Shown here piece by piece: positions 5,933 to 16,187 of a stretch of DNA of 18,070 nt. The notes below the pieces were generated by a model. It had not been told where the DNA came from. It saw nothing but the letters and a program-made list of their open reading frames with translations, and did no database searches. The position numbers and the translations under genes are program-made. Position 1 is the first letter of the stretch. Each line of letters opens with the position of its first letter. This stretch comes from a virus (lineage: Duplodnaviria > Heunggongvirae > Uroviricota > Caudoviricetes): IMG/VR virus record IMGVR_UViG_2660238548_000002, positions 1-18,070 of that record; one strand, written 5' to 3'.

Positions 5933-5969
5933 TTGACATTTAACGCACGAATTATTACCTTTCAGGTAA
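5933..5969 (+). promoter_or_regulatory. Candidate promoter (TTGACA at 5933..5938) with a perfect TTACC-N5-GGTAA palindrome at 5955..5969
   Basis: Perfect -35 hexamer, AT-rich -10 region, and a palindrome identical in form to those at the cI/cro region. Points toward the noncoding region and tRNA. Confidence 0.4.
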
Positions 5970-6291: not shown

Positions 6292-6368
6292 GTGGCATTA
6301 GCTCAGTTGGACAGAGCAACCGCCTTCTAAGCGGCTGGTCGCAGGTTCGAATCCTGCATGCCACGCCA
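6292..6368 (+). tRNA. tRNA-Arg (anticodon UCU), 77 nt with encoded CCA
   Basis: Manual fold: 7-bp acceptor stem GTGGCAT/ATGCCAC, D-arm GCTC...GAGC, anticodon loop CTTCTAA, T-arm GCAGG-TTCGAAT-CCTGC, discriminator G then CCA. Pair 27-43 is an A-C mismatch. Confidence 0.9.
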
Positions 6369-6697: not shown

Positions 6698-6726
6698 ATG
6701 ACCGAAGATTACCTTAAAGGTAGAAT
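6698..6726 (+). promoter_or_regulatory. Candidate promoter of the 246-aa gene (-10 TAGAAT at 6721..6726) overlapped by an operator-like palindrome TTACC-N5-GGTAG at 6709..6723
   Basis: -10 hexamer about 28 nt upstream of the ATG; a weak -35 (ATGACC) at 17-bp spacing; palindrome lies between them. Confidence 0.4.
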
Positions 6727-8971: not shown

Positions 8972-9564
8972 TGATTGCCATCCTGACGTTCTTTGAGTCG
9001 CTTCCTGGCTGCTGCTATGCGATCAGCAATTGTCACATTCACATTAACATCCAAGCGTTCTTTGAATGCGTTGACGTCGACGTGCTTACCAATCAGTTCG
9101 AGGTTCTTCACCTTGTCAGGCCATTTAATTTTTTTGAGGATTGTCTCTATCGAATCCTCGTTCATGTTCATGATGGTCGATGACAGATCAAAGCCGCTAA
9201 GCGTAGTGCGCCAGATTTTCGGCCACTCACGGATTGGTTTAAGGCTCCCATCGTCGTTGAGGATGTCGATCACGTCCATCTGGTCGATCTCCACTAGGCG
9301 CATGAGAACGTAATCAGCACTGACGCGCATTCGTTTGTTGCGCTCCTCCATCAACTCGGCAATCCGTTTTTGAATGCGTTCATCGCGCATCATGACACTG
9401 GCTTTAACTGCCGCTGTATTTGGGGAGAATCCTGCGTTAATCGCTGCCTGAGTCTGGTTTTCAGGCGTTTTGATGTATGACTGGCAATAAGCCTCCTGCA
9501 TTGCTGTGAGCGGCTTAAATTGCGTTGATTTGCGTTTATAGGTTTTAGGTTCAGCAGGCATCAT
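8968..9564 (-). CDS. Terminase small subunit
   Basis: Family-typical N-terminal LTAMQEAYCQSY...NAGFSPNTAAVKAS. Start placed at ATG 9564 (GGTGG upstream); the listed ORF's further extension (TITTTVTITT) runs through a terminator and repeats. Confidence 0.75.
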   Translation of the reverse strand: MMPAEPKTYKRKSTQFKPLTAMQEAYCQSYIKTPENQTQAAINAGFSPNTAAVKASVMMRDERIQKRIAELMEERNKRMRVSADYVLMRLVEIDQMDVIDILNDDGSLKPIREWPKIWRTTLSGFDLSSTIMNMNEDSIETILKKIKWPDKVKNLELIGKHVDVNAFKERLDVNVNVTIADRIAAARKRLKERQDGNQ

Positions 9565-9571
9565 AACCACC

Positions 9572-9602
9572 GTGGTAATAGTTACCGTTGTGGTAATAGT
9601 AA
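9572..9602. repeat. Two 13-bp direct repeats GTGGTAATAGT(T/A)A 18 bp apart, just upstream of the terS start
   Basis: Read directly from the sequence; the first copy forms the palindrome GGTAATAGTTACC. Candidate packaging or regulatory site. Confidence 0.5.
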
Positions 9603-9606
9603 CATG

Positions 9607-9633
9607 CAAAATAAAGCCGCCATAGTTGGCGGC
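9607..9633 (-). terminator. Intrinsic terminator immediately upstream of terS
   Basis: On the minus strand: GCCGCCA-ACTA-TGGCGGC followed by TTTATTTTG, in the 75-bp gap between the 70-aa gene and terS. Confidence 0.65.
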
Positions 9634-9638
9634 AGTAT

Positions 9639-9851
9639 TCAAAGTCCATCAAATTCATCGTAAAAACTCTCGTCAAGATACCCTTCCCATTTACCGCGAA
9701 TGAAAATTACATCCTCGCCGCAAGGGTGCTGACTGTCGATAACTATATCCCTCCTGGCGCAACCATACTTATGCATGAGAAATTTAACCTCTTTCGGAAA
9801 ATTTGCTGAGTTATCTCTCATATCTTCAAGGTCGTAGCGTATTTTTGGCAT
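9639..9851 (-). CDS. Hypothetical small protein (70 aa)
   Basis: ATG at 9851 with GAGGTG RBS directly upstream; the listed ORF extends to 9866. Confidence 0.5.
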   Translation of the reverse strand: MPKIRYDLEDMRDNSANFPKEVKFLMHKYGCARRDIVIDSQHPCGEDVIFIRGKWEGYLDESFYDEFDGL

Positions 9852-9867
9852 AACACCTCGTGACATG

Positions 9868-10206
9868 TCACACTATTAATTTCGTTTCATGCCAGCCTTT
9901 GGTCACCCAGCATTGCGAGTCACCATTACACGGGCATGAATTCACAGGAACTCTCTCGCCGCACTTACCGCAACGTTTTCTGCTGATCGATTTTATACGC
10001 CCGCGCACGCGTGCATCATCCTGGCGGATCAGTAACGCTATATACTCACCAAATTCGTAAGGCGCACGCCCGGGGCGACGTGTGGCACAGTTACGCTCCA
10101 GCATTTCAATTTCCTGAGCATCAAGCACAATCTCCAGCTTACGTACACCGGATTCAGCTTGTCTGGCTCTCTGAGCGGCTTTGCGCTCTGCTGCTGATTT
10201 AGCCAT
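9868..10206 (-). CDS. Hypothetical protein (112 aa) with a basic N-terminus and a C-terminal Cys4 zinc-ribbon (CGKCG...CPC)
   Basis: ATG at 10206, 2 nt after the upstream stop. Function unknown; a regulatory role is only a guess from position. Confidence 0.5.
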   Translation of the reverse strand: MAKSAAERKAAQRARQAESGVRKLEIVLDAQEIEMLERNCATRRPGRAPYEFGEYIALLIRQDDARVRGRIKSISRKRCGKCGERVPVNSCPCNGDSQCWVTKGWHETKLIV

Positions 10207-10480
10207 CAATATTCACCTTTATCGCGAACACCTTTACCGGTTTATCGCCGAAGTGGGGATGTGTGATTGTCTTGATTTCATATCCGTCATACGGAATATC
10301 AATTCTGCGGCTGGAATCGTCGCGCTTCGGATATCCCTTTGTGATAATCAGGCGGTCATACTCCCGGAACATAATTCGCTTATTCCAATAGTCATTACAC
10401 AGGCGATACTCCTCGGTTTTCTCGCCACGAATCATGGCATCGAAGTATTCACCTTTTACGGCAAGTTGCAGGTTAGCCAC
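10199..10480 (-). CDS. ASCH/DUF3850-like small protein (93 aa)
   Basis: GTG start with AGGAGG 7 nt upstream. N-terminal LQLAVKGEYFDAMIRGEKTEEYR resembles the recalled DUF3850/ASCH pattern. Confidence 0.45.
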   Translation of the reverse strand: MANLQLAVKGEYFDAMIRGEKTEEYRLCNDYWNKRIMFREYDRLIITKGYPKRDDSSRRIDIPYDGYEIKTITHPHFGDKPVKVFAIKVNIDG

Positions 10481-10757
10481 GACCTTCCTCCTTTGGCTTG
10501 TGAATTTGTATCGTCATGCCGCTTTGAGTGGTGACTACAATGACAGAACCAGGCTGAAGGCTGTTAAGATTGAATGCTTCGTAAAACGAATCCAATGCCA
10601 GTGCTTTTTTATTCTTTCGGTTCCACCAACGCCATCCCTTGCTACAGGCTACACTGACAATCCACTGCCCACTCCTGTAAGCCATATAAAACCAGATGAG
10701 CAAAACCTGAAGGAAGGCCATCCAGTCAATAATCGTATATTTCGCGAAGGAGTCCAT
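10473..10757 (-). CDS. Small membrane protein (94 aa) with one hydrophobic helix
   Basis: ATG at 10757 overlaps the upstream TGA (TGATG) and has a strong AGGAGGT RBS. Hydrophobic segment YTIIDWMAFLQVLLIWFYMAY. Confidence 0.55.
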   Translation of the reverse strand: MDSFAKYTIIDWMAFLQVLLIWFYMAYRSGQWIVSVACSKGWRWWNRKNKKALALDSFYEAFNLNSLQPGSVIVVTTQSGMTIQIHKPKEEGRG

Positions 10758-11329
10758 CAATTCACCTCCTGCGGCGGTTCTGGTAGCGGCATCCAGAACA
10801 AGACGTTCCCTAACCACGATAAAGTGCCGTCGCTCAACTCCACGTATTCCCCTTGTACCTGTCCTGCCATATACTCGCCGTGCTTTGAATAAATTAAAAT
10901 CCAATCATCTTGAGCGGGCATTCGCTCACTACAGCTTATCCAACCATCCGGAGTTACCGGAGAGTTGCCCGATAGCTCGTTCAACTTGTAAGTCTGGCTT
11001 ACAAGTTCGGCTTCCAATTCTGCTATGCGCTTCTCTGATGCTTCCAGCTCAACACGCAGCTTCCCTACCGTTAGCGCAATATCCTCGTTCTCCTGGTCGC
11101 GGCGTTTGATGTATTGCTGGTTTCTTTCCCGTTCATCCAGTAGTGCCAGCACGGTTTCTGGTCCGGCCAGAAGTTTGAAGGCGTTGAGCGCATCAATATC
11201 CACACCGTAATCTTTAAGTTCCTGTTCACTTAACAAATCATCATCAACTGGCAACATTAACAGGCGTTCCATTGCCGGAATTGCACGTTCTGCCGCCATT
11301 CGCAGTGCCTGATAGTCAATCTTGCTCAC
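10757..11329 (-). CDS. Ea22/Ead-like protein with a C-terminal DUF551-type domain (190 aa)
   Basis: GTG start with AAAGGAGG RBS. C-terminal W...FWMPLPEPP resembles the DUF551 signature common in lambdoid early regions. Confidence 0.5.
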   Translation of the reverse strand: MSKIDYQALRMAAERAIPAMERLLMLPVDDDLLSEQELKDYGVDIDALNAFKLLAGPETVLALLDERERNQQYIKRRDQENEDIALTVGKLRVELEASEKRIAELEAELVSQTYKLNELSGNSPVTPDGWISCSERMPAQDDWILIYSKHGEYMAGQVQGEYVELSDGTLSWLGNVLFWMPLPEPPQEVN

Positions 11330-11982
11330 TGGTTGCCTCCTTTTCGAAGCTCTGCGGCAAAGTCAGTGGCATGTTCACCGAGTAGTTTCCAGTTATCGCG
11401 TATATCAGATGCAAATGACTGTTCGGATTTTGAGTTACATTTCTGTGCAAACATCTCCAATCCCTGCGCCCGCACTTCAGCCAGGCATTTGCGAAACTCG
11501 GAAACGTACTGTTCGACGCTCATTCCCCAGCTAAGTGGACATTCATTGAATGTTTCGCCTTCGTGCTCTTCATCAGGTAGCTCTTTGGTAAAGAACTCAC
11601 GCTCAATGGCGTGGAGTGTGTCAGCAAAACGACGTAAGTTACTCAAACCTACCGTAATGGAGAATTCAGGAGCATCACATCCGACGCCCATCTGCTGATA
11701 AACGGCGGTTTTGAAGGCCTTCAGCGCCGCATTCTCCGCTGCCAGCTCCGAAAACTTCTCGTGTGCCAACTTAACAGCTGCATCAGCCTGCTTAATTGAC
11801 TCAATCGCTTTCTGCTGGTCTTCGGCCAGCGCATTAGCACGCACCAGTTGCACTTCCAGTTGCGTTGCCAAATCGCTGATCAGCTTTGCCACGCTGCGCA
11901 TATCAACGGCACCACATTCTGCTTTCAGTTCCGAAGCCATCTCATGCCCGGCGGTAACTAACCCTTTGATATTACAGTCCAT
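11326..11982 (-). CDS. Hypothetical coiled-coil protein (218 aa)
   Basis: ATG at 11982 with GAGGG RBS. No recognisable domain. Confidence 0.5.
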   Translation of the reverse strand: MDCNIKGLVTAGHEMASELKAECGAVDMRSVAKLISDLATQLEVQLVRANALAEDQQKAIESIKQADAAVKLAHEKFSELAAENAALKAFKTAVYQQMGVGCDAPEFSITVGLSNLRRFADTLHAIEREFFTKELPDEEHEGETFNECPLSWGMSVEQYVSEFRKCLAEVRAQGLEMFAQKCNSKSEQSFASDIRDNWKLLGEHATDFAAELRKGGNQ

Positions 11983-12027: not shown

Positions 12028-12055
12028 TAAAAAGATCGTCGATTCATGCCGATCT
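12028..12055 (-). terminator. Possible intrinsic terminator overlapping the HNH gene stop
   Basis: AGATCG ... CGATCT stem flanked by an A-tract and a T-tract; the 11-nt loop makes it weak. Confidence 0.3.
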
Positions 12056-12652
12056 ATTTTTCATCAGTGATTCATAAAACTTTTGCCACTTATGCCGACC
12101 GAAATTAGCCTTCGAGTTACAGCTCGAACAAAGGCAAATAAGGTTCTCCTGACGACAGTCTTGCTTGTCGTAATTGATGTGATGAGTTGTTAGCCTTTTG
12201 TCTGTTCCATCACAACCTGGGTTCTGACAAGTAAAACCATCTCGCTCAATAACCCTCTTGCTCGTTTCTCGGAAATCCCACGGATACGGCAATCTCGATA
12301 ATCCACCAGACCAGTTTGGATTTCCTTCCCCCTTCATCAGAGAAGAACGCATTATGTTGGAACACTGTTTCGAGCAGCATTTATGACGCTTCTCATGACT
12401 CAAGAAAACGGAGAACGAAGATCCGCATACGCAGCATATTTTTAATACTCGCTTTAGTTCCCGATTTACCGTCTTGCCTCGCTGTGAAATTCCTACACAC
12501 TGAAGTGAGCAGAACCTTGAAGATGAGTTGGCTCGCTTAACCTGATATTGCCTGCCACATACGGGGCAAACCTTTTCGATTTTCCCACCCTTCCAATTCG
12601 GGTTTTTATCACCGGATACAATCAATCCCGCAGCATTGGGCTTCTCGCTCAT
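12044..12652 (-). CDS. HNH homing-type endonuclease with duplicated NPNW(K/S)GG modules (202 aa)
   Basis: C-terminal HHINYDK...ENLICLCSSCN is an HNH motif; two NPNWxGG repeats. AT-rich. ATG at 12652 overlaps the upstream stop (ATGA). Confidence 0.8.
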   Translation of the reverse strand: MSEKPNAAGLIVSGDKNPNWKGGKIEKVCPVCGRQYQVKRANSSSRFCSLQCVGISQRGKTVNRELKRVLKICCVCGSSFSVFLSHEKRHKCCSKQCSNIMRSSLMKGEGNPNWSGGLSRLPYPWDFRETSKRVIERDGFTCQNPGCDGTDKRLTTHHINYDKQDCRQENLICLCSSCNSKANFGRHKWQKFYESLMKNRSA

Positions 12653-13002
12653 AGTTCCTCAACCTCCCATCCACCACCGAGCTTTTTAGGTTTTGGATAA
12701 GCAACCTGAAAGACAAACGGATAGCTGTCTGCCGCAACCTTCATCTTGACTCTCGCATCGTCAGTAAAGACTGACTTACTTCCCTTAACGTCCACCATCA
12801 CCAACTGCCCGTCAGCCAACATCACGGCAAAATCTACAGTCAGGAAGCAGTTGTCAGCCAGCCGCAGCTTGATACCCTCGAACCGATACCAGGCGACTTC
12901 CCCTGCACGTTTACGCTGCTCAAGGTGCTGGCAATACGCAGATTCTGTTTTGTTCATCTGGCCTGTTTTGAGTCGACCAAGAGCCTGTATCTGTTTTCTC
13001 AT
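12649..13002 (-). CDS. DUF1064-like phage protein (117 aa)
   Basis: Pattern ...YRFEGIKLRLADNCFLTVDFAVM...VDVKG resembles recalled DUF1064. Translationally coupled to the HNH gene. Confidence 0.45.
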   Translation of the reverse strand: MRKQIQALGRLKTGQMNKTESAYCQHLEQRKRAGEVAWYRFEGIKLRLADNCFLTVDFAVMLADGQLVMVDVKGSKSVFTDDARVKMKVAADSYPFVFQVAYPKPKKLGGGWEVEEL

Positions 13003-13005
13003 GAT

Positions 13006-13082
13006 TTACCTCTAAGGTAATTAAAAACCACATAAGGCACAAAATCAATAGATCTAAGAATATTTTGTTACCCATTGGGTAA
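13006..13082. promoter_or_regulatory. Two perfect TTACC-N5-GGTAA palindromes (13006..13020 and 13068..13082) upstream of the DUF1064 gene
   Basis: The first palindrome starts 4 nt upstream of the ATG and contains the RBS; the second lies about 60 bp further upstream. Confidence 0.5.
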
Positions 13083-13119
13083 TTATTGAGGCGTAAAAAA
13101 ATGCGCTATCGCGCTGGTA

Positions 13120-13920
13120 TTACTTGATAAATCCTGCTGCCTTTCCTCGCCTGTATTCCTCCATCAGCCACTGCGCCGGTGTTATTCCCCCCAGGGTGGC
13201 GGCGTTAGGCATGCACCCGAAACTTCGCCCTGGTGGATGGTAAACGTCTCTCCCTGTGTCCGGAGGTGTACTCATGGGTTCTGGCTTTGCCTGTATGCTG
13301 ATCACCGGATCGGGTATCTGCTGTCCGGAAGCCACCTTTTTCGCCCAATCATCGAGCAACCTGCGCGCGTGTTTCTCAACCTCAATCTCGCTAAGCTGGC
13401 GCTGATACATTGCACGGCGGGTATCACATACGACCCAGTACATAACCGGATGTCGCCACGGGAATCTTTCGGGACCACCAGGATATAAACTTTTTTCCTT
13501 GCTGTACCGGTGAAACTCCGCCATCACATCGTCAATGGTGACGCCAAGAACCATCTTGCTGTCTTTACACCACTTGATGAATTGCCCTGGCGACGGCCAG
13601 AACGGAGATTCACTGGCGCGGGCGTGGCGCATACCAGCAGAAACCTGTTCACGGGTTCGGATCCCCCCTTCGGCAAACGCAGCAATCCACTGCTGTTTTG
13701 CAGCAACTTCCTGCTCTGGCGTCTTCAGGTTGGTTACCACTGCCGCCGGAAACAGTTGTTTCAGCTGTTTGAAAAGGGCATCAACAAGCCTCTCTGCTGA
13801 CATGTTCACCACGTTGTCATTGTTGGTGTACTGATGCTCATAACCTGACATGCGAGAAAGGGCTTCTCCGTCACGGTTTTGTATCGCGGTAAAAACGTTG
13901 TTCACAAGAAATCCTCCCAT
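13120..13920 (-). CDS. Lambda P-like replication protein (helicase loader)
   Basis: Central QWIAAFAEGGIRTREQVSAGMRHAR...PFWPSPGQFIKWC aligns with the recalled lambda P region RRQWVLAFRENGITTMEQVNAGMRVAR...PFLPSPGQFVAWC. Strong GGAGGA RBS. Confidence 0.8.
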   Translation of the reverse strand: MGGFLVNNVFTAIQNRDGEALSRMSGYEHQYTNNDNVVNMSAERLVDALFKQLKQLFPAAVVTNLKTPEQEVAAKQQWIAAFAEGGIRTREQVSAGMRHARASESPFWPSPGQFIKWCKDSKMVLGVTIDDVMAEFHRYSKEKSLYPGGPERFPWRHPVMYWVVCDTRRAMYQRQLSEIEVEKHARRLLDDWAKKVASGQQIPDPVISIQAKPEPMSTPPDTGRDVYHPPGRSFGCMPNAATLGGITPAQWLMEEYRRGKAAGFIK

Positions 13921-14717
13921 GCTTCAGGGCTGTTCCAGTGCGGAACGTTGTTATCAGGTAATGTTGATTGCTTCTGTCTGCTAATCTGCAGCCGCCTTGC
14001 CAGCTTCTGCTCCCACTGTGCCTGATGGTATGCCTTACCCTCAGCCATCCAGTAAATTCTGAACTCTGCAAGTTCCTGTGCCGTTGGCAGACTGTCCAGG
14101 TAGATCCCCTGCAATGAGCTTTTCCGAAGAAAGTCATCTGATGGTTGCCATTGTTCATGCATGACAAATTTGCCTAATTGCCCTGGCCCACCAGGAGGAA
14201 CAAAGTTATTCATCACGGCGTTGTTTGCGCCGGGGTCATGAGGCACAGAATCCCCGGTTTTTGTTCTGCTCTCCCTCTCTTGGTTAAATGACTGGTTATA
14301 TGACTGGTTCTGGATCCCGTTTTTGGGATCATTCAACATCCCGTTTTTGGGATCATTCAACATCCCGTTTTTGGGTATATTCCCGTTTTCGGTAACATTA
14401 CCGTTTTCGGGTTCATTACCCCCTTCCCGGTTGCCTTTAATGTTCCCGTTTTTGGTTATATTAAGAGAGAAAACCCGCACTCTTTTCGTCGCTCCCTTTC
14501 TCTCTCCGGTATCTGAAATAAGCCCCATTTTCATGAGCGATATAAGCCCGGACTGCACGGTTTTTTTATTCAGGCAAGTGTCTTTAACGAGGCGTTCTAT
14601 GCTGGGGTAGCAGAGGTTATATTCATCGGCTCTGTCAGCCATCGAGAGCAGTATGAGCTTTAATGATGAGCTACCTGGGTCTGTCTCCCAGGCCCAATCT
14701 GTTGCATGTCTGCTCAT
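13902..14717 (-). CDS. Replication initiator, O-like (N-terminal HTH, repeat-encoded linker)
   Basis: Lies upstream of and overlapping the P-like gene; iterons are embedded in the coding sequence and encode the tandem KNGMLNDP repeat. Confidence 0.65.
   Translation of the reverse strand: MSRHATDWAWETDPGSSSLKLILLSMADRADEYNLCYPSIERLVKDTCLNKKTVQSGLISLMKMGLISDTGERKGATKRVRVFSLNITKNGNIKGNREGGNEPENGNVTENGNIPKNGMLNDPKNGMLNDPKNGIQNQSYNQSFNQERESRTKTGDSVPHDPGANNAVMNNFVPPGGPGQLGKFVMHEQWQPSDDFLRKSSLQGIYLDSLPTAQELAEFRIYWMAEGKAYHQAQWEQKLARRLQISRQKQSTLPDNNVPHWNSPEAWEDFL
14314..14460. repeat. Origin-type iterons: two perfect 24-bp tandem copies (ATCCCGTTTTTGGGATCATTCAAC) plus about 4 degenerate copies of the CCCGTTTT(T)GG core
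   Basis: Read directly from the sequence. Each unit contains an ATCCC/GGGAT inverted repeat; the array lies inside the O-like gene as in lambda ori. Confidence 0.75.
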
Positions 14718-15083: not shown

Positions 15084-15314
15084 TCATGAGTAGAAGAAGT
15101 ATGCCAGTTCTGCTTTTGAGCGCAGCCATTGTCTTGTTTTACAGGCTTTAAAAAGCCCATTCATCAATACTTTACCTGGCATTTTGCGCTTACCTGTTAA
15201 GTGAGTCTGGATATAGTGACTCGTCGTTCCGGCTTCCTGTGCGAAGGCTTCACGCTCATCCGGAGTAAGTGCAAGCCAGTGCTTTTTGAAATCGAAATGT
15301 CCGTTATCGCTCAT
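15084..15314 (-). CDS. Cro-like HTH regulator (76 aa)
   Basis: Divergent from the repressor gene and first gene of the rightward-equivalent operon. HTH-like segment LTPDEREAFAQEAGTTSHYIQ. Confidence 0.6.
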   Translation of the reverse strand: MSDNGHFDFKKHWLALTPDEREAFAQEAGTTSHYIQTHLTGKRKMPGKVLMNGLFKACKTRQWLRSKAELAYFFYS

Positions 15315-15350: not shown

Positions 15351-15413
15351 TCACCCATAAGGTAACAAAAATCAAGGATAGTTACCTATGGGGTGCATTT
15401 ACCTGTTGGGTAA
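15351..15413. promoter_or_regulatory. Divergent immunity promoter region with three operator-like sites (15351..15365, 15382..15396, 15399..15413)
   Basis: Lies between the divergent cro-like and cI-like starts. Three TTACC-N5-GGTAA family palindromes, echoing an OR1-OR3 layout. Confidence 0.6.
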
Positions 15414-15468: not shown

Positions 15469-16053
15469 ATGAAAAGTATCCAGGACGTCCGCAGGCAAAA
15501 TCTCAACGACTTGATCGACCGTGAATTCAATGGTGTTCAGACGCGGATGGCAGAAAAACTTGGAACTCAGGCAAATCTGGTAAACCGCTGGGCTCTTGGC
15601 AAGAAGGTTATCGGCGACCAGGTTGCGCGAAAAATTGAAGCTGCCGCCAATAAACCCCGTAACTGGCTTGATATCGATCGCTCGCTTTCTCAGGAGGGGT
15701 TTCAGCCTGTCGGCCCAAGCGACATTGGTCAGCTGGCGGCTCACAACCTGGAACGCTGGATGAGCGAAAGCCGCGACCTTTCAACACAGGGAAAACTTCA
15801 CCGCGCATCCGGCGTCGCCCAGGTGACAATCAGCCGCCTGTTAAACAATGAGGTCAGTGTTTCCATTTCCACCCTGGAGAATGTTGCATCCGCATTCGGG
15901 CGTCACGGATATGAACTACTGATTCACCCGCACGACCCTGCGACTATCAACTATGACCGCTCGCGCTACGCATTGTTACCCGAAACCGAGAAAGCAAAGA
16001 TCGAAAGTTACATTGAATTTGTCATCAACCAGAACGAAAAAAACAAACAATAA
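15469..16053 (+). CDS. CI-like repressor with two HTH (XRE-type) domains and no S24 peptidase domain (194 aa)
   Basis: Two HTH-like segments (residues about 20..60 and 95..150). Divergent from cro and followed by a strong terminator. Confidence 0.65.
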   Translation: MKSIQDVRRQNLNDLIDREFNGVQTRMAEKLGTQANLVNRWALGKKVIGDQVARKIEAAANKPRNWLDIDRSLSQEGFQPVGPSDIGQLAAHNLERWMSESRDLSTQGKLHRASGVAQVTISRLLNNEVSVSISTLENVASAFGRHGYELLIHPHDPATINYDRSRYALLPETEKAKIESYIEFVINQNEKNKQ

Positions 16054-16110: not shown

Positions 16111-16187
16111 TTACCTAATGGGTAATTTTTTTAACTCATATCTATTGACATCAAACCAGATACGCATAATTATTACCTAAACGGTAA
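16111..16187 (+). promoter_or_regulatory. pL-like early promoter (TTGACA at 16145..16150) flanked by two perfect TTACC-N5-GGTAA operators (16111..16125 and 16173..16187)
   Basis: Perfect -35 hexamer and AT-rich -10 region; one operator upstream and one overlapping the start region, upstream of the + strand early genes. Confidence 0.55.

Follow-up and report, generated by a model that had tools for sequence, protein, structure and literature searches.

The question raised by this locus is what a compact array of small genes contributes between the replication and packaging modules of a prophage, and which of its members are exchangeable. The window is the whole stretch of viral DNA that was analysed, 18,070 nucleotides in length. 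The cluster lies at 9639-11982, with all genes on the minus strand, between lambda-P-type replication genes and terS. The phage is placed among the Uetakevirus (phiV10/epsilon15/TL-2011b-like) E. coli prophages. On one side of the cluster, upstream, are a DnaT/HTH initiator gene (13902-14717), a lambda-P gene (13120-13920), a DUF1064 gene (12649-13002, minus strand) and an HNH endonuclease gene (12044-12652, minus strand), and on the other side terS, terL and portal follow in this order. This is the position between replication and packaging modules that had been given by an earlier sequence-only reading. The DUF1064 and HNH genes, both identified by Pfam and PHROG matches, lay outside the cluster as that reading drew it and are upstream members of the same putative unit. 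The HNH gene is missing from 82 compared loci and is an insertion relative to phiV10.

Six ORFs, with ribosome-binding sites, were counted in 9639-11982, and we number them g1 to g6 from the DUF1064 side toward terS. Five small genes had been listed before; the unlisted one is g6 (9639-9851). The tight packing with overlapping stops and starts was found as described, with overlaps of 4, 1, 8 and 8 nt. We put a probability of about 80% on the reading that a Uetakevirus E. coli prophage carries here, at the far end of its early-right arm, a hypervariable array of accessory genes, of the ordinary kind found at this place in E. coli phages of the phiV10/epsilon15 type, its six co-oriented genes being translationally coupled. 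The six genes stand downstream of DUF1064 and of the HNH gene that was inserted there, and a conserved terminator closes the array just before terS. The analysis corrects the gene count, the starts of g3 and g6 and the phage group, and it recognises 'ea'/exo-xis cassettes transplanted to the rightward arm. Plus-strand ORFs were also considered as genes. One of them (10181-10534) matches phrog_20945 (8.8e-55), yet stops interrupt it in 9 of 54 distinct alleles, and the plus-strand ORFs were set aside as shadows.

Gene content was compared across relatives. Among 60 related loci, 57 different gene orders were seen and the ORFs fell into 81 families; the variable stretch measured 1.6-4.2 kb. This bears out the description of a hypervariable accessory region. 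The anchors are conserved, the g5/terS/terL end being 97-100% identical in most loci and DUF1064 about 74%. The first gene after DUF1064 is g1-like in 56 of the 60 loci. Genes g2, g3 and g4 form one block whose ends fall at gene boundaries. Its identity to the early-left "ea" region of P22-like phages is about 95%, and the part that CUS-3 has in common with the window, positions 10209-11328, corresponds exactly to these three genes. Intragenic breakpoints were seen too, in g1 after residue 53 and in g2, where residues 1-45 differ from ST104 orf8. On our reading g1-g4 and g6 are exchangeable cassettes moved by recombination at or near gene boundaries, and they are shared with P22-like 'ea' regions, lambdoid/Stx exo-xis regions and T-even phages. 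Since close relatives lack them, g1-g4 and g6 are probably dispensable for lytic growth. The term accessory thus suits these five genes; it does not suit g5, which is present in all 72 loci selected by terS. One conserved gene is in this way set apart from five exchangeable ones. Parts of the stretch occur in 3487 of 5426 complete E. coli genomes, with at least 80% coverage in none. Because about two thirds of these genomes contain part of the stretch, wide relevance can be expected of any function established in future for Ea22-DUF551, DUF4752, the small ASCH protein or the UvsY.-1 homologue.

The region had been called nin-like. Like the lambda nin region, it lies between P and the late genes and holds small ORFs of a non-essential kind, and g5 homologues occur in true nin regions. 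Unlike it, the window has no nin family (NinB, NinG, NinH, Q and others), and Pfam and PHROG searches of the six genes gave none either, so that the likeness holds for position only. The gene families present here, Ead/Ea22, EaE-like, DUF551, DUF4752 and ASCH, are typical of two other regions, the lambda exo-xis region and the P22/HK620 'ea' early-left region. The order Ea22-like, DUF4752, ASCH is that of ST104 orf8-orf7-orf6 beside xis/int, with ~95% nucleotide identity. However, the exo-xis/'ea' regions lie leftward between recombination genes and xis/int, whereas here the genes are in the rightward arm, beyond the replication genes, and are followed by g5 and a terminator instead of xis/int. 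By family assignment, all six genes belong to families that have been catalogued before, few of them with a known function, and the array is a fresh combination of known cassettes. The ZX5 Uetakevirus paper does not treat the genes of this cluster.

The first gene, g1 (11326-11982, minus strand; 218 aa), is an EaE-like mosaic protein with a GAGGG ribosome-binding site and matches to phrog_492, 250 and 368. It is acidic (net charge -12) and is laid out as a heptad-rich N-terminal part of ~90 aa followed by a rare C-terminal domain; no Pfam match was found. Residues 1-53 are 92% identical to phiV10 p46 'eae-like', and beyond that point the two are unrelated. The C-terminal ~50 aa are ~52% identical to P22-like EaE. 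This is the gene that had been called a coiled-coil protein, and a heptad pattern was indeed detected in its first ~90 residues, only about 2 sd above shuffles.

The second gene, g2 (10757-11329, minus strand; 190 aa, net charge -18), starts with a GTG that overlaps the g1 stop (GTGA) and is preceded by GGAGG. It had been described as a DUF551-type Ea22-like protein, and Pfam agreed on both parts: Ead_Ea22 (PF13935 / IPR025153) matched with E 6.5e-28 (98.5 bits vs a gathering cut-off of 27), and DUF551 matched residues 129-187 with E 3.8e-12. The heptad signal at residues 78-122 was 2.7 sd above shuffles. The match to ST104 orf8 is segmental, with ~90% identity in the central coil. An Ead_Ea22 coiled coil followed by DUF551 as a variable C-terminal domain is the architecture named Ea22 'V2' (PMC10834534), and g2 shares this order and, like the characterised C-terminal domains, is acidic. 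Unlike the lambda and Stx Ea22 proteins, g2 is shorter, has a different N-terminal segment and sits in the rightward arm past the replication genes, not in the exo-xis/early-left region. Characterised Ea22 relatives push lambda and Stx phages toward lysogeny (PMC7093339, PMC10834534), an effect measured on the proteins of lambda, Phi24B and P27 in their exo-xis setting and not on g2 or its position. By analogy, g2 would be an Ea22-type coiled-coil oligomer that presents a DUF551 head and is expected to favour lysogeny. The sequence-only reading would have been refuted by confident housekeeping assignments for all members of the cluster; no member could be given one, nor an anti-defence role. 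Its statement that none can be given a role is too strong for g2, which has lysogeny-biasing relatives.

The third gene, g3 (10473-10757, minus strand; 94 aa), had been described as a single-helix membrane protein with overlapping start and stop. Its ATG at 10757 and the stop of the gene before it have one base in common (TGATG), and its end overlaps the next gene by 8 nt. One N-terminal hydrophobic helix is followed by a basic stretch; the hydropathy peak at residues 8-26 has a Kyte-Doolittle 19-residue mean of 1.65, which is borderline for a membrane helix. We regard g3 as a small, putatively membrane-anchored protein. It belongs to DUF4752 (PF15944; E 6.9e-36, 122.6 bits vs a gathering cut-off of 27, profile positions 2-84 of 84) and to phrog_667. 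The family is narrow, with 47 clusters that fall in Enterobacteriaceae throughout, and g3 was found in 11 of the 72 terS-selected loci. Our literature search found no paper that mentions DUF4752.

The fourth gene, g4 (10199-10480, minus strand; 93 aa; phrog_625, 6.5e-51), encodes a putative ASCH-like (PUA-like) protein. The earlier label ASCH/DUF3850-like survives in its first half, weakly: Pfam ASCH (PF04266) scored 14.2 bits against a cut-off of 21.2 (E 0.071), below threshold and only over profile positions 1-23 and the 23 residues at the N-terminus, and weak ASCH matches were obtained for 11 of 31 homologues (best E 0.002). DUF3850 was not matched in Pfam, and a g4 profile found no ASCH structure in the PDB. 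The NCBI name is 'ASCH domain-containing' or 'RNA-binding protein'. We read g4 as a putative small PUA/ASCH-like protein, probably one that binds RNA. It is present in 36 of the 72 loci, every time directly upstream of g5.

The gene that had been overlooked, g6 (9639-9851, minus strand), starts at an ATG with a GAGG ribosome-binding site and encodes 70 aa; an alternative start at 9866 would give 75 aa. Its product is acidic (net charge -5), matches phrog_1541 (2.7e-39) and is homologous to T4 UvsY.-1, with 49% identity over 87% of the length (E 2e-13). The local Pfam copy gave no match for g6. A 70-aa Salmonella orthologue with 89% identity carries PF26882 Phage_T4_Y11B in a precomputed table. 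We assign g6 to the UvsY.-1 family of small proteins. Purifying selection was seen for g4 (dN/dS 0.18), g5 (0.07) and g6 (0.06 against the Salmonella orthologue). This last value, the Salmonella orthologue and the homology to T4 uvsY.-1 show that g6 is a real gene. Matches to g6 occur in 695 phage records, and the names of almost all of them are those of T-even-type phages. Its T4 relative lies downstream of uvsY, whereas g6 belongs to the prophage of a temperate podovirus and stands between g5 and the terminator. It is present in 19 of the 72 loci, and four aligned loci without it carry a 186-bp internal deletion remnant in its place.

As to what the exchangeable genes do, they most likely modulate the host or the choice between lysis and lysogeny. 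A more specific reading, compatible with this one, is that g1-g4 and g6 are anti-defence or superinfection genes, which inhibit host immunity or exclude other phages. Accessory regions have been proposed as places where counter-defence genes concentrate (Silas et al., bioRxiv 10.1101/2023.04.06.535777), and the cluster resembles the regions in that study in its conserved flanks (DUF1064; g5/terS), its fast gene turnover among near-identical genomes, its small ORFs without known function and its mosaic boundaries at gene borders. The small size of the proteins, the strong acidity of g1, g2 and g6, the hypervariable content between conserved anchors and the horizontal spread over unrelated phage lineages, including T-even phages, also fit. 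However, unlike those regions, the interval contains a core gene, g5, and no counter-defence phenotype is reported for its genes. Searches of the six genes with defence models (PADLOC) and named NCBI families (NCBIfam) gave no match, and only the adjoining HNH gene matched ZorE/IscB-type HNH models. The literature search gave no paper tying DUF4752, DUF551 or these ASCH proteins to anti-defence, and the sole experimentally studied relative, Ea22, acts on the lysogeny decision and not on immunity. We regard an anti-defence role as rather unlikely, and keep modulation of the host or the lysogeny decision as the preferred reading.

The remaining gene, g5 (9868-10206, minus strand; 112 aa), is a fixed core gene of this phage group and is not accessory. 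In each of the 72 terS-selected loci it lies 74-672 nt upstream of terS with at most one other gene in between. Its product is a basic helical protein (pI 9.6; phrog_536) with a C-terminal Cys cluster spaced CxxC-x8-CxC-x5-C, in which C79 and C82 are invariant, C99 is nearly invariant and C91/C93 are kept among close relatives. It had been described as a zinc-ribbon protein; beside the conserved Cys cluster it has a larger helical N-terminal part. Single-sequence and profile searches of the PDB gave nothing significant for g5, nor for g1, g2 and g4. An AlphaFold model from an alignment of homologues with at least 76% identity was unusable (pLDDT 60), and a diverse 57-sequence alignment gave pLDDT 92. 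The latter model had no significant structural neighbour among solved structures or BFVD viral models; its weak, non-significant neighbours were RHH DNA binders (CopG/Arc/MetJ) and the TraR/DksA zinc finger. The g5 family, which PHROG labels 'transcriptional regulator', recurs in accessory/nin regions of lambdoid, N15-like, P2-like, Vibrio and Aeromonas phages. Apparent fusions of the g5 module to other proteins were uninformative: the gene calls had run on into DUF1367, DUF1064 or terminase fragments. We regard g5 as most likely a nucleic-acid-binding regulator, a candidate that would combine an RHH-like helical part with a Cys4 knuckle.

Membership of g5 in the TraR/DksA group was also considered. 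[quoted passage not shown] The three best PDB profile matches were TraR (twice) and YbiI, covering helix 52-75, the Cys cluster and a C-terminal helix, but their E-values (0.055-0.085) were non-significant. Phage TraR homologues are found beside ea22 in the exo-xis region (PMC9239242, PMC8614690). A g5 homologue stands directly after gpA in a P2-like Yersinia phage. This is presumably the position where P2 carries orf80-83, including the TraR homologue Orf82. However, none of the 57 family members has a DxxDxA motif, the aligned g5 segment being PYEFGEYIA, and none matched Pfam zf-dskA_traR. The Cys spacing is not CxxC-x17-CxxC, and g5 has an additional basic N-terminal region of ~50 residues. 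In this extra basic N-terminal helix, and in its lack of a significant score to either, g5 differs from both the RHH and the TraR/DksA comparators. Membership was rejected on motif, Cys spacing, Pfam and fold, and action in the secondary channel is highly improbable. A nucleic-acid-binding regulator remains the preferred reading of g5.

Downstream of g6 lies an intrinsic terminator (9608-9633, minus strand; GCCGCCA-ACUA-UGGCGGC with a U tract), which was the best in the scan with 7 pairs, 6 of them GC. The 84-nt intergenic RNA folds with -26.6 kcal/mol (z -4.4). The terminator is kept in E. coli and Salmonella relatives, and the phiV10 annotation also has a terminator in this position. Between it and the terS start is a pair of TTACC-N5-GGTAA palindromes (9564-9598), the second of which overlaps the terS Shine-Dalgarno. 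A 14-mer search had presented this element as a unique 14-nt direct repeat upstream of terS with two copies; re-read as TTACC-N5-GGTAA, it gave ten sites in the window, where chance alone would give 0.28. The palindrome half-sites are invariant in 50 distinct terS-upstream sequences, and the spacers vary. An RNA switch of alternative hairpins over the terS Shine-Dalgarno was set aside, as copies of this palindrome are also present in promoter regions, well away from any ribosome-binding site.

The position of g5 beside this element raises the reading that it is the missing early-to-late switch of epsilon15-like phages, an RHH-type activator or anti-repressor that acts on the downstream terminator and palindromes and turns on terS and the late operon. 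The fixed place before terS and the PHROG label agree with this, no Q-like gene was found among the scanned ORFs, and identity between E. coli and Salmonella is 87% in the intergenic element against a synonymous divergence of 0.8-2.1 in neighbouring genes. However, g5 homologues lie far from terS in phages with a Q antiterminator (phiKO2 and an Edwardsiella lambdoid prophage, where the homologue is inside a true nin region beside DUF1367, NinG and Q), as well as in the P2-like Yersinia phage. The palindromes also flank the repressor gene, a layout typical of repressor/Cro operators, and the structural matches of g5 are non-significant. Because of the homologues in Q-containing nin regions and the motif at the repressor flanks, a dedicated late activator is weakened as a reading of g5, and we regard it as unlikely. 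We are equally doubtful of the wider proposal that g5 is a previously uncharacterised small zinc-binding regulator of the early-to-late transition or of host transcription through the terminator and palindrome element. The nucleic-acid-binding regulator is kept as the more general reading, and g5 and the repeated palindromes are the two leads that deserve experiment.

A second palindrome pair (13006-13084), in the intergenic region between P and DUF1064, would mark the upstream boundary of the putative DUF1064-HNH-g1-g6 unit, whose limits we infer. Pairs are also found upstream of the early-left genes and in the repressor/cro promoter region; the CI-like repressor is encoded at 15469-16053 and the Cro-like protein at 15084-15314. 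Because the unit is bracketed by palindromes that also flank the immunity repressor gene, the prophage repressor, as the likely binder, probably silences it directly. The palindromes that bracket the unit and precede terS suggest direct repressor silencing of middle and late units in epsilon15-like phages, and the genome papers on epsilon15 and phiV10 may already contain a description of such multi-site operators. The idea of a separate unit draws on two elements only, the palindromes and the terminator-like hairpin; a sigma-70 promoter scan found none passing the scan rules upstream of DUF1064 or terS. Single palindromes were found at 5955 and 6709. A Salmonella epsilon15-like phage has the same palindrome layout, and in VB_ST_E15 the same arrangement is present upstream of the resolvase gene.

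By DNA similarity, the window was placed in the phiV10/epsilon15/TL-2011b group of temperate E. coli podoviruses (genus Uetakevirus). Its relevant genes all lie on the minus strand, transcribed from high to low coordinates in the order cro, DnaT/HTH initiator (13902-14717), lambda-P (13120-13920), DUF1064 (12649-13002), HNH endonuclease (12044-12652), the cluster (9639-11982), terS, terL and portal. The Cro-like gene is divergent from a CI-like HTH repressor gene on the plus strand (15469-16053). The true start of terS, the small terminase subunit gene, is at ~9564; its 224-aa longest-ORF form was rejected as an artefact of in-frame TTG codons upstream. With lambda-P and the initiator on one side and terS, terL and portal on the other, the cluster was correctly located by the sequence-only reading between the replication and packaging modules. 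Six ~24-nt repeats, (A/T)TCCCGTTTTTGGG..., form an array at 14314-14466 within the DnaT/HTH initiator gene; by analogy with the lambda ori within gene O, this array probably serves as the replication origin of the phage.

The cluster had been described as five small accessory genes. This description was largely right except for the gene count, as the minus strand carries six ORFs, designated g1 to g6 in transcription order. g1 (11326-11982, 218 aa) has a GAGGG ribosome-binding site before its start. g2 (10757-11329, 190 aa) begins with GTG in a GTGA overlap with the g1 stop and is preceded by GGAGG, and the ATG of g3 (10473-10757, 94 aa), preceded by AGGAGG, has one base in common with the g2 stop. 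g4 (10199-10480, 93 aa) overlaps g3 by 8 nt, and g5 (9868-10206, 112 aa) overlaps g4 by 8 nt. g6 (9639-9851, 70 aa, or 75 aa from 9866) starts with ATG after GAGG. A 143-aa longest-ORF form of g3 was another artefact of in-frame upstream TTG codons. The dN/dS values against Salmonella orthologues were 0.18 for g4, 0.07 for g5 and 0.06 for g6; all three genes are under purifying selection. Plus-strand ORFs were rejected as shadows of genes. One of them, 10181-10534, antisense to g4, matches phrog_20945 (E 8.8e-55) and is interrupted by stop codons in 9 of 54 distinct alleles; phrog_20945 was probably built from wrong-strand gene calls.

The first 53 residues of g1 are 92% identical to phiV10 p46 ('eae-like'), with no relationship beyond, and the last ~50 resemble P22-like EaE proteins. 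No Pfam domain was found in g1, and its middle part is rare in cultured phages, residues 95-218 being matched at all by only 25 phage records. g2 combines Ead_Ea22 (E 6.5e-28) with DUF551 (E 3.8e-12), the architecture of the 'V2' Ea22 of Stx phages. Ea22 of lambda forms a tetramer in which a coiled-coil body carries an exchangeable C-terminal domain, and Ea22 favours lysogeny in lambda and tested Stx phages (PMC10834534, PMC7093339). g3 is a DUF4752 protein (E 6.9e-36), whose N-terminal hydrophobic helix (residues 8-26) is borderline and precedes a basic stretch; the family is narrow (47 clusters, Enterobacteriaceae only). g4 matches phrog_625, and its family is named 'ASCH domain-containing' by NCBI. 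Its match to Pfam ASCH is below threshold (14.2 versus 21.2 bits) and covers only the N-terminal 23 residues, and weak ASCH matches were obtained for 11 of 31 g4 homologues. g6 matches phrog_1541, is 89% identical to a Salmonella protein with Pfam Phage_T4_Y11B, and is 49% identical to T4 uvsY.-1 (E 2e-13); its matches extend to 695 phage records, T-even-type by name in nearly all. Anti-defence or host-takeover functions had been suggested for the region; PADLOC and NCBIfam gave no match for any of g1-g6.

Related viral contigs were fetched through g5 (80) and through terS (80 more), and gene order was compared in 60 loci spanning DUF1064 to terS. These loci fell into 57 distinct gene orders, with ORFs of 81 families in a variable stretch of 1.6-4.2 kb. 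In 56 of the 60 the leading gene is g1-like, though mosaic, and Ea22-like genes occur in 55, often two per locus. A non-circular sample was provided by the 72 loci selected through terS that had 1 kb or more of sequence upstream, in which g4 was present in 36, g6 in 19 and g3 in 11. Parts of the stretch were found in 3487 of 5426 complete E. coli genomes searched, and none covered 80% of it. Phage CUS-3 shares block 10209-11328, exactly g2, g3 and g4. In the P22-like ST104, the order Ea22-like, DUF4752, ASCH is as here at ~95% identity, but that copy adjoins xis/int in the early-left operon, whereas here it is in a nin-like position. The cluster is therefore a set of 'ea'/exo-xis cassettes in a nin-like position. 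The proposal of a nin-like accessory region thus holds as to its accessory nature; the content is of 'ea' rather than nin type, and one member, g5, is core. The pattern is that of well-known phage accessory regions, and the cluster combines catalogued cassettes in a new way, with no departure from known phage biology.

In the four aligned loci that lack g6, including the cultured phage TL-2011b, only its first ~22 and last ~25 nt remain, so g6 was lost there by a 186-bp internal deletion. Intact g6 had no close match among named cultured Uetakevirus records; the only phage record more than 60% identical to it is the unannotated 'phage PH444'. The g5-terS gap is 414-672 nt in some relatives (L148, L156, L159, L165 and L168-L170), compared with 122 or 308. 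In these long-gap relatives the g6 slot may hold other small cassettes, as a second mini accessory site.

All 72 terS-selected loci contained g5, in every case 74-672 nt upstream of terS; among them are lineages in which identity falls to 83-91% for terS and to 73-86% for g5. Its family is modest (181 representative clusters). Homologues occur in an Edwardsiella prophage, in a lambdoid nin region adjoining DUF1367, NinG and Q; in N15-like phiKO2, as Gp45; in a P2-like Yersinia phage, directly after gpA; and in Vibrio and Aeromonas phages. In a diverse alignment, the N-terminal helix is basic and another helix has the pattern 'PY..EYI..LIR.D'; C79 and C82 are invariant, and C99 nearly so. The AlphaFold model from this alignment was confident (pLDDT 92, pTM 0.69), with four helices (5-19, 30-42, 52-75, 100-108) plus a Cys knuckle. 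No significant structural neighbour of the model was found: Foldseek gave no PDB entry below E = 1, and only a same-family fragment came from BFVD. The best PDB matches of the sequence profile were TraR (twice) and YbiI (E 0.055-0.085). A TraR-type assignment was rejected, as g5 has no DxxDxA motif, a different Cys spacing, no Pfam zf-dskA_traR match and no fold match. We read g5 as a small nucleic-acid-binding regulator; an RHH-like nature is suggested with low confidence.

The best intrinsic terminator of the region (9616-9633, followed by a U tract) closes the unit and is conserved in E. coli and Salmonella relatives. Two apparent 14-nt direct repeats between it and terS are really two TTACC-N5-GGTAA palindromes. 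The window holds ten such sites, where chance predicts 0.28. Eight form four close pairs: between the repressor and early-left genes (16111 and 16173; 16111-16187), between the repressor and cro genes (15351 and 15399; 15351-15413), between P and DUF1064 (13006 and 13068; 13006-13082), and before terS (9564 and 9582; 9564-9596). Single sites lie at 5955-5969 and 6709-6723. One of the 15351/15399 sites overlaps the -35 of the only sigma-70 promoter found; no promoter passed the scan rules at 13003-13119 or before terS. The Salmonella epsilon15-like phage VB_ST_E15, whose repressor is 42% identical to that of the window, has the same layout: three palindromes lie on either side of the repressor gene, two precede the resolvase gene at the head of the corresponding unit, and the holin gene is preceded by one. 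In the simplest reading, the palindromes are probably operators through which the repressor and Cro control several transcription units. In the lysogen, the unit from DUF1064 to g6 and the late operon would then be silenced directly. Only g5 and these multi-site palindromes are leads with some novelty, and the epsilon15/phiV10 genome papers may already describe the palindromes. Directly after the P gene (13085-13125, minus), a short GCGC-GATA-GCGC hairpin followed by T7 sits where phiV10 has an annotated terminator; it does not reach the five pairs demanded by the terminator scan.

The HNH endonuclease ORF between DUF1064 and g1 encodes 202 aa. It was not found in any of 82 related loci compared, including phiV10 and TL-2011b, nor in PAS61 as annotated, and NZ_LR882057 has no CDS annotated for it. 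The ORF looks like a free-standing homing-endonuclease insertion. The equivalent phiV10 span is 614 nt shorter, and the complete DUF1064 and HNH stretch occurs in only 22 of the 5426 E. coli genomes. The DUF1064 allele beside it is ~74% identical to the common allele. Elsewhere, the stretch between terL and portal contains small ORFs and a tRNA-Arg (anticodon TCT; 6292-6368) on the plus strand, opposite the late genes.
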